DNA of 64,000 nt from Octopus vulgaris. Lineage: Eukaryota. This document shows, one piece after another, positions 1,322-60,603 of the stretch; position 1 is the first letter of the stretch, and every line of letters starts with the position of its first letter. The stretch is taken from NCBI GenBank assembly GCA_951406725.2, contig OX597827.1, positions 63,116,001 to 63,180,000 on the forward strand, read 5' to 3'. The position numbers and the translations under genes were made by a program. The notes beneath the pieces were generated by a model. The model was not told the DNA's origin. It worked only from the letters and a program-made list of their open reading frames with translations, and searched no databases.

Positions 1322-1925
1322 AATTTAAAAATAGGATAAAATCTTTATAAGAATTTATCAAGTAGTCAGCATGAAAAACCTTATAAGAGAAAAAAACTCT
1401 ACCAATTTTTTCACTTAAATATATTTATATTATATAGAGGGCATCACTACAAATAAATTCCACACGCTAGGAGGGACTCTTAAAGTCAAAACTACTAAAA
1501 TAAATAAACATATCGTACCGAATACAACTCTCGAAGCAAGTCATTTAAAAACAGAATTTAGCTGCAGATCACTGTGATTTCATAATCAGTGCAGTGGTGC
1601 ACTCTTTACTCATCAGTACAAGCATAATTCAAGATTTGTAATGAATGAACAAAATCAACATGCCAGACGAAAAACCATCGTATCCAACATAGTATATAGA
1701 AATGTTAATCCCTTATACATCTATGTTGCATTCGGTACAATATGTTTATTTATTTTAGTAGTTTTGACTTTAAGAGTCCCTCCTAGCGTGTGGCATTTAT
1801 GAGTAGCAATGACCTCTATATAATATAAATAAACATATTTAAGTGAAAAAATTGATGGATATGAGGTTTTTCACGCTAACTACATGATAAATTCTTAAAG
1901 ATTTTATCCTATTTTTAAATTGTAA
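1322..1925. mobile_element. Foldback element: ~200 bp diverged inverted arms (1322-1528 / 1725-1925) with a hammerhead in the spacer; Penelope pLTR-like
   Basis: cacacgctaggagggactcttaaagtcaaaactactaaaataaataaacata is inverted as tatgtttatttattttagtagttttgactttaagagtccctcctagcgtgtg; abuts (TA)n at 1290-1321. Confidence 0.8.
1561..1623 (-). ncRNA. Type I hammerhead ribozyme, canonical core
   Basis: Minus strand: gcttgta-CTGATGA-gtaa(ag agtgca ccac tgcact ga)ttat-GAAA-tcac a gtga-TC-tgcagc; stems I, II and III pair; AUC triplet. Confidence 0.85.
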
Positions 1926-2129
1926 ATTTAACCGGAGAATATTCAGTACTGAATTTTTATTCCGAATAAGCACGTTGTTACCGGTGTCGATTTTACAATT
2001 CTGTAAATAATAATAATAAAAATATTTTATAAGTTTAAAGCTTATATGCGATCACCGTGAATTAATTAAGGTAAATAGTCTGATACTGGGACATATTAGC
2101 CCAAGACGGAAAAAAAAGGTAGGATTTTC

Positions 2130-2201
2130 CGTACGCGTGGGACTTGAACCGACACTCCTATGTTTTCGGGACAGGTGTACTACTATTACACCAAAGTACG
2201 C
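2130..2201 (-). pseudogene. tRNA-like pseudogene or tRNA-derived SINE head
   Basis: Minus strand has A-box TGGTGTAATAGT, D stem GTGTA/TACAC, B-box GGTTCAAGTCC, partial acceptor CGTAC/GTACG; T8 run just downstream (A8 at 2110-2117). Confidence 0.6.
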
Positions 2202-2475
2202 ACCCCCCGCTTCTTTCCGTCAGATTTATGAAATTATAGTTTTTCAAATTATAGTTCCTAAATCTGACGGAAAAAGCGAGGGATAATAGAAATACATTTC
2301 GTAGCACATGCGGGCGAAAGTCAACCAGATACTCTTTAAAACTAGGTTGGATTATGCCTTCGGTTTTTTTTTTTGATTTTCGTTCGATTTCCGCTTACCA
2401 AATACTAATCTTAAGATATATACATCCTAACATACGTGAATACATACATACATACGTACATACAAGAATACATAC

Positions 2476-2830
2476 ATCATCATCATCATCATCATCGTTT
2501 AACGTCCGTTTTCCGCGCTAGCACGGGTTGGACGGTTCGACCGGGGTCTGGGGAGCCAGGGGCTGCTCCAGGCTCCAGTCTGATCTGGCAGTGTTTCTAC
2601 AGCTGGATGCCCTTCCTAACGCCAACCACTCCGCGAGTGTAGTGGGTGCTTTTTACGTGCCACCTGCACAGGTGCCAGAGGGGTCTGGCATCGGCCACGA
2701 TCGGTTGGTGCTTTTTATGTGTCACCGGCACAGAAGCCAGTCGAGGCGGAGCTGGCATCGGCCACGTTCGGATGGTGCTTTTTATGTGCCACCGGCACAG
2801 AAGCCATTCGAGGCGGGGTTGGCATCGGTC
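2476..2830 (-). mobile_element. Retroposon 3' part with (GAT)n tail and three internal ~65 bp tandem units
   Basis: (CAT)n then cgtttaacgtccg...ggatgcccttcctaacgccaacc; unit ggtgcttttta(c/t)gtg(c/t)cacc...ggcatcgg starts near 2645, 2707 and 2774. Confidence 0.7.
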
Positions 2831-3084
2831 CATACATAAACATATAAATATATGTATGGCTATATATTTTGATATATATATATGTTAGAATGCTTGAAGT
2901 GATGTACAGATATTGTTTATTGAGAAAAAGCAGGAAGTCGGAATTTTGGATAATTCTCTATTGGCGCTTTCTTTCGCTTATTGAACTCGTCAAGACAAAT
3001 TTAAAATGGTTTATTTGCTTCGTTTAGAAGAGGATAAAAATATTTGGGGGTAGGGGGAAAAGAGAATGAAAATCAAAAGGGGAA

Positions 3085-3217
3085 GAGAGAGGTTTCAGGA
3101 CAATCAAGAAAGGGGGAAAGAAAGAAAGAAAGAAAAGCAATGAGGGAGCAGAAAAAAAAATAGTCTGAGACAGAAGTACAATCAAGAACCTTTCTTGATT
3201 GTCCTGAAACCTCTCTC
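3085..3217. repeat. 29 bp perfect inverted repeat (3085-3113 / 3189-3217)
   Basis: gagagaggtttcaggacaatcaagaaagg versus cctttcttgattgtcctgaaacctctctc. Confidence 0.85.
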
Positions 3218-3419
3218 ACTTTCTCTTTGTCTATTTTTTCTCCCTACGCATGGTTTTTCTTTCTCGCTTTAACCCTTTTTTGTAGAATAAAAAAAAATAT
3301 TTATTTTCCTTTTCTAAACAAAGCAAAAAAAAAACATCTGATTCATATAAATGAACAACGAAATTTTGTTTTTAACCATTTTGATTTTGTCTTGGCGAGT
3401 TCGACAAACGAACTGACGA

Positions 3420-57780: not shown

Positions 57781-57849
57781 AGTTGGTTGTTCAGTAAGAA
57801 ATCAAAAAAGTAAAAACAAAATACATTATATTCCGTTTGTTATATTCGT

Positions 57850-58320
57850 TTGGCTATGCTGGAGCACCGTCTTTAGTCGAAAAAAAATCAACCTTGTACT
57901 TATTCTGTTGGTCTCCTTTGCTGAACTGTTAGTTTACGGTGACGTAAAAGCACCAACATCGGTTGTCAAGCGATGATGGGGGCGGAGAAACACAAACACA
58001 CAAGCTTATACATATATATATATAAATACATGCACACACCCGGCAACATCAACGCATTCACACACGTGTGACCTCGCCTCACACCCACATACTCACACGC
58101 ACACATATGCACACACATCCACACAAACATGCACACACACACACACACACACAAACACAAATATATACGATGGGCTTCTTTCAGTTTCCGTCTACCAAAT
58201 CCATTCACAATGTCTTTGGTCGGCCCGAGGCTATAGTAGAAGGTGTCACAAAGTGGGACTGAACCCGGAATCATGTGGTTGGTAAGCAAGCTACTTACCA
58301 CACAGCCACTCCTGTACCTA
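57850..58320 (-). mobile_element. SINE family A
   Basis: Family match. Confidence 0.8.
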
Positions 58321-59144
58321 TGTGTGTGTGTATCCTAGATATGTATATCTTTTATCCATGAGGTCGTGTGTAGGGACGTGTGTGTGTGTATGTGTGTGTG
58401 TGTGCGAGTGTGTATGTGCGTGTGTGTGGGGTGAGTGTACTTGTGTATGTGGGTGTGTGAGGCGAGGTGACAAGTGTGTGAGGGCGTTGATGTTGCCGAG
58501 TGTGTATATGTATGTTTATGTATGCGTGTATGTGGGTGCGTGCTGTGCGTGCGTGCATGCCTGTGTGCGTGTATGTGTATATGCGTATGAGTGTGTGTGA
58601 GGCCGCATGTGTGTGGACGTGTTCATGTGCATGTGTGTGTGTCTGTGTATGTGCGTTAGTGTGAGTGTGCATGCTTGTGTGTGTGTGTGTGCGAACGTGT
58701 GTATATGGGGGTGAACGTGAGATGCGATGCATCACGTGTGAGTCAGTTGGTATTACTGTTTCTGTGTATGTTTCTTTGTGTTAGTGTGTATGTGTATGCG
58801 GATGTGTGTATATAAATGTGTGTATGAGTGTGTGTGACGGTGTGTGACCGTGTGTGTTTGGCCATGTGTGTGCATGGGTGTGTGTGCATATGTATGTGTA
58901 TACGTATGTGTGCGTGTTTGTATATACGTTTGCGCGTAAAGCCAACAGATAATGCATCGATGGTACGCAGATAATTCTTTGTGTTCAGTACGGAGAATGT
59001 ATATATTTCTACCGCTTTAAGACAGTTTTTATTTCCCGATGATATATAACGCAATAGAGCTTCATTCCCTCGACGCACGGCGTTCTTGACCGATATATAA
59101 ATCAACCACCCGTAATGTCAGTAAGCATAATGTATATATATATA

Positions 59145-59443
59145 CTAGCAGTATCGCCCGGCGTTGCTCGGGTTTGTAAGGGAAATAACAATATAAGCAT
59201 TTTTAGAGAGTTACTTCCCTTATACAAACCGAGCAAAAATGCATTAATAATGCGGAAAAATGATGGTAATTTTTTTTTTAATCGTAGACTCATCGTAGAC
59301 GCGCGCTAATACCCAGAAGGGCTCGATATGAATCACGACTATAAGATACCCGCTTTTGGTTAAACTGCACCGCAAAATGTGGGAGTAGTTAGGAATCTAA
59401 ATCGGAGTAGACAGACACACAACTTCAGTTTTATATATAAAAG
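59145..59443 (-). mobile_element. Non-autonomous Helitron, same family as 37137-37531
   Basis: ctagcagtatcgcccggcgttgctcggg...aatcggagtagacagacac. Confidence 0.85.
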
Positions 59444-59639
59444 TGTTTGTGTGTTGCGTGGTTAAGCGATTAAACATCGTCACCTGAATAGTGGATGACA
59501 AAATAATTAGTCTCCGAAACATCTAGATGTCTTCCGAGGTAAGTTGTGGTTAATATTACACATTACATTTTTGTTATCCGGTCTATTTAAGAGCCTATTG
59601 TGTCTTCCATTTGGTTAATTAGCATTGACGTACGCTATC

Positions 59640-59940
59640 CCTCTCTCCCTCTCTCTCTCTTTTCGCACTCACATTATTCTCTCTTTCCCTCTATTCTCTC
59701 TCTTTCTCTCTATTCTCTCTCTTTCTATCTCTCTATTCTCTTCCTCCCTCTCTCTCTCTCTCTTTTCGCTCTATCATTATTCTCTCTTTCCCTCTATTCT
59801 CTCTCTTTCTATCTCTCTATTCTCTCCCTCTCTCTCTCTCTCTCTCTCTCTTTTCGCTCTCTCATTATTCTCTCTTTCCCTCTATTCTCTCTCTTTCTAT
59901 CTCTCTATTCTCTCCCTCTCTCTCTCTCTCTCTCTCTATA
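59640..59940. repeat. CT-rich minisatellite, three ~90-100 bp units
   Basis: cttttcgc...cattattctctctttccctctattctctct occurs three times. Confidence 0.8.
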
Positions 59941-59950
59941 TATATATATA

Positions 59951-60603
59951 TATAATCATATCAAAAGGGAAATGGAATTTAATTAAATTTAAAATATTCA
60001 ATCAAAATTTACATTTCCAGTGGTCTAATATTAAATGGTAAATGTTTTTCATTTCCAAATTTTGTTCCTGTCGAATCTTATCCGTTATTTTTGTGGTTCT
60101 ATGTGTTGAATTTCACCCTAAGTGTGGATTCCTTATGTGTATAAATATACACTATCGTATGACTAATATATAGTCTTCTTGACTATTTTTTTACACGTTA
60201 GACCACTGGAAATGTAAGTTTTGATCGAATATTTTAAATTTAATTAAATTCCATTTCCCTTTTGATATGATTAAACATTATAACATTTTGGATAATTTTC
60301 GGTTAAAGTTGGCGGTTTATTATAGCTACCGATAGGACTGCGATTGCGCAGAAAAATTTGAAAAGTTACTTCGTATAAACAGTAGACAGATAGCAGTCCT
60401 TGTCTTCTGTCTTATGTTTTAACCCAAGGTTGGCCCTCGCCGATGAAGATCAGACCTTGTGAGTTACCCTGACTTGCTAAAGAAGATCAGAAACCAATTT
60501 TGGTCCGGGGTATTAAATGGTAAATGTTTTTCATTTCCAAATTTTGTTCCTGTCGAATCTTATCCGTTATTTTTGTGGTTCTATGTGTTGAATTTCACCC
60601 TAA
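59951..60603 (+). mobile_element. Retrozyme-like / mini-Penelope element: 5' inversion + 482 nt monomer + partial second monomer, in (TA)n
   Basis: 60029-60121 equals 60511-60603; 59953-60028 is an inverted copy of 60198-60273; hammerhead at the monomer junction. Confidence 0.8.
60435..60510 (+). ncRNA. Type I hammerhead ribozyme (C at core position 4)
   Basis: cctcg-CCGATGA-a-gatc...gatc-a-GAAA-ccaa tt ttgg-TC-cgggg; GUC triplet at 60503-60505. Confidence 0.7.

Follow-up and report, generated by a model that had tools for sequence, protein, structure and literature searches.

A 64,000-nucleotide (nt) window of the Octopus vulgaris genome (assembly GCA_951406725.2, contig OX597827.1, positions 63,116,001 to 63,180,000 of the forward strand) harbors twelve hammerhead-type ribozyme folds distributed over eleven repeat families. 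Five of these families (B, F, G, H, and H2) are the 5′-short ends of autonomous Penelope-like elements, three (C, D, and I) consist of ~500-nt units devoid of an open reading frame (ORF), and for three (A, E, and K) no parent was found. A preliminary description of the same stretch had gathered its hammerheads under a single label, that of TA-targeting ribozyme retroposons mobilized by Penelope enzymes. This label covers two kinds of element: it fits C, D, and I and may extend to A, E, and K, whereas B, F, G, H, and H2 own Penelope-like ORFs. Taken as a whole, a composite of Penelope-end families, trans-copied units, and parentless families is very likely the best explanation. The class as a whole is mostly known biology, as hammerhead-bearing short Penelope ends and mollusc retrozymes have already been described. 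The unusual part lies in fixed variants of the catalytic core, above all a G3:C8 pair in a young Nematis-like family.

The host genome, 2.8 Gb in size, is rich in AT and microsatellites, and both descriptor scans were accompanied by shuffled controls. A relaxed scan of the window yielded 10 folds at a score of at least 5, compared with a mean of 2.25 (maximum 5) in 40 local dinucleotide shuffles, none of which reached as high, and 4 folds at a score of at least 8 against a mean of 0.275; the folds are indeed commoner than in dinucleotide-shuffled sequence, as anticipated. A strict scan, which left positions 3 and 8 unconstrained, returned 24 matches in a background sample of 1.12 Mb, made up of 112 stretches of 10 kb at even spacing and excluding the eight that adjoin the window, as opposed to 2, 0, 1, 1, and 0 matches in five shuffled runs. 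A chance origin of the folds, from the palindromes and inverted repeats of AT-rich sequence, accordingly has a negligible probability. Many sites do lie within inverted pairs, one site (J) fails, and an Rfam search of the window gave no match at the gathering score, the 150 best of its 562 E-value rows being nearly all microsatellite-driven microRNA matches. A chance origin is nonetheless refuted by the shuffle controls of both scans; covariation in family C and family majority sequences that fold better than single copies also speak against it.

Own-genome searches with each site provided the sequences of each family, at 860–4287 first-look candidates per family, which are candidates rather than copy numbers. 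With the exception of 59484, each site belongs to a multicopy family in which all 40 of the candidates scored were matches. The positions given earlier correspond to families D (1561), E (20507), C (25982), B (33304 and 57464), F (47860), A (48351), G (50223), H (52228), and I (60435). Where about ten type I folds from at least six unrelated contexts had been proposed, ten of the eleven sites are confirmed, spread over nine families, and the additions H2 and K bring the families to eleven. The type I three-helix order is present in the majority sequences of all eleven, with 65–100% of cells paired. Stem III, described as minimal and usually palindromic, is perfectly so in seven majorities (A, B, C, F, G, H, and K), whereas in D, E, H2, and I it is simply closed by 4–5 bp. 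Within the window, the relaxed descriptor picked up A, C, D, I, and the B copy at 57495 among the earlier sites, together with H2 and K, and missed E, the B copy at 33335, F, G, H, and J; the first two scanners overlooked most variant cores. In the 1.12-Mb sample the eleven families contribute 72 copies, counted whether or not their hammerhead is complete, equivalent to 4.1 per 64 kb. The window is richer than this sample, partly since the families were chosen from it.

Preservation of the tertiary 3:8 pair shows that selection acting on the source elements maintains the hammerheads. All 24 strict matches are Watson–Crick at 3:8 (19 C:G, 3 U:A, and 2 G:C) with no mismatch, seven of them belonging to one array of ~359-nt spacing. 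Families A, C, D, G, and H2 carry the canonical core CUGANGA / GAAA / UH, and compensatory 3:8 pairs occupy E and K (U3:A8) and H (G3:C8). These variants predominate within their families: G3:C8 occurs in 41 of 43 H copies, and U3:A8 in 43 of 52 E copies and 13 of 15 K copies, one K copy being C:G. At G3 and C8 of family H, four public runs spanning four organism codes list no alternative letter at 10% or more (contigs only). Three other majorities show a single fixed departure from the core, namely U6 in B, C4 in I, and C13 in F (core CUGAAGA), and position H17 is never G in the eleven majorities. Covariation within families, the other expectation for genuine folds, materialized in family C, with 23 two-sided cells versus 8.2 shuffled (0 of 500 as high; slid controls 2–11), tempered by a two-sided pair count (5) that equals the shuffled mean and by the repeated counting of inherited changes among cells; it is slight or absent within D, G, H, I, and K. 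A read-depth step near the H cut was set aside: it also appears in probable DNA runs and tracks subfamily differences.

These core variants invite the question of whether the hammerheads still cut. Cutting may no longer be needed, in which case the folds would persist as RNA structures bound by Penelope protein, and U6, C4, C13, and G3:C8 would mark relaxed catalytic selection. We consider this rather unlikely. It would accommodate the fixed U6 of B, C4 of I, and C13 of F, given that changes at A6 reduce hammerhead activity (PMC3088659), as well as the fact that 5′ ends in A and B do not cluster at the cut. It also finds a parallel in Anolis, where hammerhead mutants insert unchanged in vitro and no RNA ends were observed at the site (PMC11167929). 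Against it stand the Watson–Crick 3:8 pairs in 24 of 24 strict matches, the exclusion of G at H17 from all majorities, and the positions at which D and I copies begin. Ten D or I copies extend to within ~55 nt of a second cut site, and nine of them start between +54 and −37 of it, which lends weak support to cutting in vivo, the number being small and two copies possibly sharing a source. In the preferred reading, weak cleavage is predicted for these folds, either in dimers joined by the palindromic stem III or with a protein assisting, and both protein-assisted weak cleavage and a dimer requirement are on record (PMC4209133, PMC11167929).

The families B, F, G, H, and H2 are recognized as 5′-short ends of autonomous elements because they run upstream into ORFs encoding a GIY-YIG endonuclease, either alone or together with a reverse transcriptase (RT). 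They are assigned to the Hydra, Neptune, and Nematis-like clades by motif. Compared with the clades of Craig et al. 2021 (PMC8557442), the motifs of G and H2 are those of Hydra, the long linker of B and F is that of Neptune, and H has a short linker akin to the Nematis rows of that paper's supplement. Upstream of B, a GIY-YIG domain with a CxxxxCxxC long Neptune-type linker lies ~0.8 kb away at 2 of 30 loci (L037 and L060), and the C-terminal end of the RT is all that is present in the sequence seen. The endonuclease appears in four of five upstream stretches fetched for F and the RT in one; here ORF and hammerhead are linked by overlapping homology via L232/L236. Frames joining RT and endonuclease were found for G, with DKT and CxxC/CxH motifs (L349, L350, and L352), and for H2, with CxCX5C (L283; upstream sequence shared in L279). 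RT motifs were seen in the parents of G, H2, and F. Inverted 5′-short copies with an optional tail are evident in G, H, and F, and less clear for B and H2.

Family H offers the longest frame, 755 stop-free codons (L347) located 1051 nt upstream of the cut across a 1.05-kb microsatellite-like untranslated region (UTR). Its N-terminus was lost at an inversion, and the first ~33 residues derive from the inversion joint. The protein model has a pLDDT (predicted local distance difference test) of 84.8, and its top three PDB matches are telomerase RTs; among aligned relatives, weak matches connect 8 of 30 to RVT_1 and 5 of 30 to GIY-YIG. A PDB search with a single sequence gave no match, and one with a profile gave a single RT match (E 5e-4). 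The best named relative of one of the ORFs is an octopus protein at 57% identity. We had entertained H as a parentless 205-nt element, a notion dropped once its microsatellite-like 3′ UTR, which had passed for flank, was recognized. Both G and H look young: 33 G matches, the window copy included, are 100% identical over 124 nt, and 40 of 40 H matches are identical over 63 nt.

In the window, these five families are represented by short copies, mostly on the minus strand. Two B copies, at 33235–33376 (core 33335) and 57375–57568 (core 57495), both minus, carry the U6 core, the first being a short 3′ end of a Neptune-type element with a minimal hammerhead. F (47771–47897, minus, core 47895) is likewise a short 3′ end of a Neptune-type element, a decayed copy with U4A and a weak stem I that has effectively been lost. 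G (49948–50298) is a head-to-head pair with a long tail on the minus arm and a short tail on the plus arm; its GAAA at 50223 represents the 3′ half of the hammerhead, the 5′ half being present in other copies, and its parent is a young Hydra-clade element. H (52088–52290, minus) comprises the ~200-nt 3′ end of a Nematis-like element, with the G3:C8 core GUGAACA at 52273 and a predicted cut after 52237. It replaces the tail of H2 (52291–52520, minus, core 52369), the 3′ end of a Hydra-clade element.

The second kind of element comprises C (537 nt), D (497 nt), and I (508 nt), ORF-less units of 30–34% GC with one type I hammerhead each. In all three, the 3′ tail continues into the unit's own upstream part, so that the units are arranged head to tail; among the 20–30 best copies read per family, alignments remain contiguous over more than one turn at 9 of 30 C, 14 of 20 D, and 10 of 20 I loci. 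The copies are dispersed, 0.1–1.5 units long (one reaches 2.3), and often accompanied by an inverted arm. An alignment longer than two units occurs at one of 70 loci (L106), so that tandems of two or more whole hammerheads, the arrangement used as a criterion by Li et al. 2026, are rare here. No Penelope ORF is joined upstream in sense to C, D, or I, with the exception of a chimera at one of 20 D loci, in which the 5′ end of a 1.47-unit copy meets a Hydra-type ORF fragment between two (TA)n runs. This D–Hydra chimera is a single hint at a mobilizing partner. It lies at L102, oriented 1004–1200, and may reflect a template switch. Circular folding gave z-scores of −2.1 (D), −4.9 (C), and −5.2 (I) relative to 40 shuffles; these include the hammerhead and were not weighed. 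C, D, and I are likely retrozyme-like units copied in trans by Penelope enzymes.

The window copy of D (1323–1730, minus) spans 0.84 of a unit, with a canonical CUGAUGA core at 1616, a predicted cut after 1567, and (TA)n at its end; an inverted, 5′-short second D copy without a hammerhead follows at 1725–1985 (plus, end approximate). C (25701–26205, plus) covers 0.92 of a unit, and its canonical core at 25989 sits in a fold with a 7-bp stem I, a long stem II, and a palindromic stem III; compensatory changes occur among C copies. A 77%-identical short piece of the C tail, lacking the hammerhead, is found at 855–938 on the minus strand. I (59943–60603, plus) makes ~1.1 turns of its unit plus a short inverted arm, has the C4 core at 60440, and starts 5 nt past the predicted cut.

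Two other origins for these short repeats deserve consideration. C, D, and I might be terminal repeats of autonomous elements yet to be found, arranged in tandem at the DNA level and never mobilized as RNA. Retrozymes derived from terminal repeats with local tandem amplification have been reported (Li et al. 2026, 10.64898/2026.07.22.740005), and our reading was confined to the best copies; the dispersal of the copies, their two fixed 3′ ends before (TA)n, and their inverted arms are, however, marks of Penelope-type insertion and render this origin very unlikely. More broadly, all families might be independent non-autonomous ribozyme retroposons, SINE-like (short interspersed nuclear element) or retrozyme-like, mobilized in trans. 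Fixed 5′ ends in H, A, and B, the ORF-less nature of C, D, and I, the E copies that start within ~45 nt of the core, and the predominance of short copies in every family would all agree with such independence. It is nevertheless unlikely, considering that five families run into their own ORF, that a long copy, one of four in the unbiased H sample, matches the parent protein at 99.6% identity, and that short and long copies interleave on trees of low resolution (13 changes versus 13.2 shuffled in B, and 6 versus 6.7 in A). The composite of parental ends and trans-copied units therefore remains our preferred reading.

The ends of the copies speak to how they were made. A tail of 70–240 nt stopping at (TA)n had been noted, and (TA)4 indeed lies 62–244 nt past the predicted cut at 10 of 11 of those sites, with J at 405 nt. 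For H2 the distance is 250 nt with H interrupting, and K has no (TA)4 within the 600 nt examined. Across families, 35 of 63 unbiased 3′ ends have (TA)4 following within ~23 nt, with any read-through at a first end scored as a miss. The same holds for 5.3% of positions drawn at random, and for 1.6% once those that follow a microsatellite are left out. The (TA)n ends are real. As a trait of the group they did not survive, because a SINE-like control repeat without a hammerhead does likewise in 87 of 149 instances in the 1.12-Mb sample, so that ending at (TA)n is not special to hammerhead families. This control repeat is very abundant and includes window positions 20251–20412. Two fixed 3′ ends, 40–150 nt apart, are seen in C, D, F, G, H, and I; in C, D, and I they lie ~100 nt apart, followed by (TA)n. 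At the other end, starts cluster in H: 31 of 38 alignments begin between −52 and −65 relative to the cut, as do 10 of 12 once the copies selected with the family query are set aside.

We regard as likely a copying mechanism that would account for these ends. The GIY-YIG endonuclease of the element would nick (TA)n, in keeping with published insertion preferences. RT would then start internally on the RNA, from one or two fixed points 60–280 nt 3′ of the hammerhead, in the manner described by Frangieh et al. 2024. It would copy through the uncleaved hammerhead and subsequently stop early or switch strands, giving rise to short and head-to-head copies. Judging from the starts of the longest copies, transcripts of C, D, and I would arise from copies exceeding one unit and be trimmed at a hammerhead, and we infer that their mobilization occurs in trans. 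That RT ran off an RNA 5′ end lying within the upstream terminal repeat, and so set the fixed 5′ ends of A, B, and H, strikes us as an evenly balanced proposition. A bolder extension can be offered tentatively, with somewhat less than even confidence: the young Nematis-like element would be currently mobile and self-cleave with its natural G3:C8, the core variants would amount to a natural mutational scan tolerated through dimers or protein, the ~200-nt copies would be RT run-off products, and the ~500-nt TA-targeted units would ride on Hydra-clade enzymes.

A number of observations weigh against the composite reading and its mechanism. No intact tandem of terminal repeat, ORF, and terminal repeat was found, all seven long stretches being inverted pairs or 5′-short, and a promoter or RNA start inside the repeat is hence putative. 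Pfam searches with three parent ORFs themselves returned no match. No sequence kinship of C, D, and I to the five parents or other reference sequences was found. Among the parentless families, an ORF is present in none of six upstream stretches for A, none of 19 for E (300-nt stretches only), and none of 12 short stretches for K (a search limited to 360-nt stretches). Stem I is short in E (3 bp), F (2 bp), and G (3 bp), and the A and B trees are poorly resolved. Fixed 5′ ends are seen in 19 of 31 A and 13 of 31 B copies, the A peak sitting on a microsatellite-like tract and that of B perhaps partly corresponding to an alignment break between subfamilies. The (TA)n ends of the SINE-like control, the pair count in family C, and the unaffected in vitro insertion of the Anolis hammerhead mutants (PMC11167929) belong on the same side.

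Published systems supply close parallels. Cervera and de la Pena 2014 (PMC4209133) reported thousands of single minimal hammerheads per genome that are "probably related to truncated PLEs" (Penelope-like elements). As in their data, the octopus has many sequence families per genome, opposite-strand pairs, palindromic stem III, a U3-A8 covariant, and an additional base between 9 and 10.1; fixed G3:C8, U6, C4, and C13 family cores were not encountered among their descriptions, supplementary figures aside. Craig et al. 2021 (PMC8557442) documented a (TA)n preference in Hydra and Naiad and listed Hydra-1_Obim, from octopus, with (TA)n. Our elements share with those clades a C-terminal GIY-YIG, a linker zinc finger, inverted 5′-short copies, a tail at one end, and (TA)n, whereas the tails here measure 40–150 nt rather than 30–40 nt. 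Retrozymes are known from mussels (PMC7229834) and have been proposed to be Penelope derivatives (10.64898/2026.07.22.740005). Each C, D, or I unit is low in GC, lacks an ORF, repeats head to tail, and carries a single type I hammerhead, as in metazoan non-LTR (long terminal repeat) retrozymes (PMC7229834). The octopus copies differ in their dispersal, in having inverted arms, in being built of ~500-nt units and nearly always falling short of two of them, and in ending at two fixed 3′ positions before (TA)n; unlike the retrozymes of Li et al. 2026 (10.64898/2026.07.22.740005), they have no matching terminal repeat that we could find.

The nearest mechanistic counterpart is the Anolis Poseidon element of Frangieh et al. 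2024 (PMC11167929), in which RT starts internally at two sites 3′ of the hammerhead, explaining two 3′ ends, AT-rich DNA is nicked, cutting requires protein, and a C3G/G8C double mutant partly restores cutting. The two 3′ ends recur in the octopus; G3:C8, engineered there, is a natural majority here. In the literature we met G3:C8 as a term for laboratory mutants alone (PMC11167929, PMC8495972, PMC3884650), though Lunse et al. 2017 and supplements may list such cores. Perreault 2011 (PMC3088659) lists natural U3:A8 and A6C, with G3:C8 absent from the relevant section, and A6C is also treated in PMC7151607. A search combining octopus with hammerhead or retrozyme found no dedicated paper, and the word "ribozyme" is absent from the main text of a 2026 octopus repeat annotation (PMC13282606).

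A natural, high-copy, apparently young G3:C8 hammerhead with an ORF, together with the other fixed core variants, is a ready substrate for asking what hammerheads do for Penelope elements. Genomic copies by themselves would suffice to test the internal-initiation model, by way of the fixed 5′ ends and the two 3′ ends. Variant cores escape standard descriptors and Rfam. Extrapolated from ~17–24 strict folds per 1.12 Mb, some 40–60 thousand such folds would exist genome-wide, which bears on the classification of short repeats.

For the three remaining families no parent was found. A is present as a ~205-nt copy (48277–48484, plus) with a minimal hammerhead (core 48354) that has decayed to U3.G8. 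Longer A copies share ~0.9 kb of AC-rich upstream sequence, and two of them (L008 and L027) share a differing 160-nt upstream segment, possibly a chimeric subfamily. E (20440–20577, plus) is a head-to-head pair with a U3:A8 core at 20508, a 4-bp stem III, GUC, and a 3-bp stem I. E copies begin no more than ~45 nt from the core in 19 of 19 short stretches, mostly as head-to-head pairs; a type III assignment was rejected, the upstream hairpin being the inversion joint. K (55928–56068, plus) is an old, ~80%-identical repeat with a U3:A8 core at 55941, a 6-bp stem I, and a palindromic stem III. The first stem II pair is broken in the window copies of both E and K.

Site J (59463–59633, plus), called weakly at 59484, belongs to a two-copy repeat with GAAA, a palindromic stem III, and GUC. 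The doubt was warranted: stem-I-like pairing is present, no core adjoins it in either genomic copy, and a type I assignment was rejected. By-eye inspection for a type II or permuted form revealed nothing convincing. GAAA, the long palindromic stem, and GUC are kept in both copies (window and L383), which could represent a relic or a permuted hammerhead. The two Penelope relics noticed earlier are genuine, both broken and both on the minus strand: a Neptune-type GIY-YIG relic at 13058–13556 and a Hydra-clade RT thumb/GIY-YIG relic with a CxCX5C linker at 34460–35350. They are no more than candidate mobilizers, and the 500–700 nt read downstream of either contain no hammerhead.

The background sample contains at least eight further hammerhead families (L180, L186, L192, L196, L200, L206, L215, L227, L292, and L300), several with a 6-bp stem I and a long palindromic stem III, and one a U3:A8 family of two copies. 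One 10-kb stretch (L286, 20000001–20010000) holds at 2307–4512 a tandem array in which one identical canonical hammerhead recurs seven times (five on the plus strand and two on the minus) at intervals of 353–359 nt, with a head-to-head arrangement, a textbook retrozyme-like family with no member in the window. Other repeats in the window include a 349-nt tandem repeat of 2.2 copies with 86% matches (9741–10514) and a 4-kb (TAA)n-type array (27576–31766). Short non-LTR retrotransposon relics with a restriction-like endonuclease end, which we take to be of R4/Dong type, lie beside (TAA)n runs at 6216–6731.

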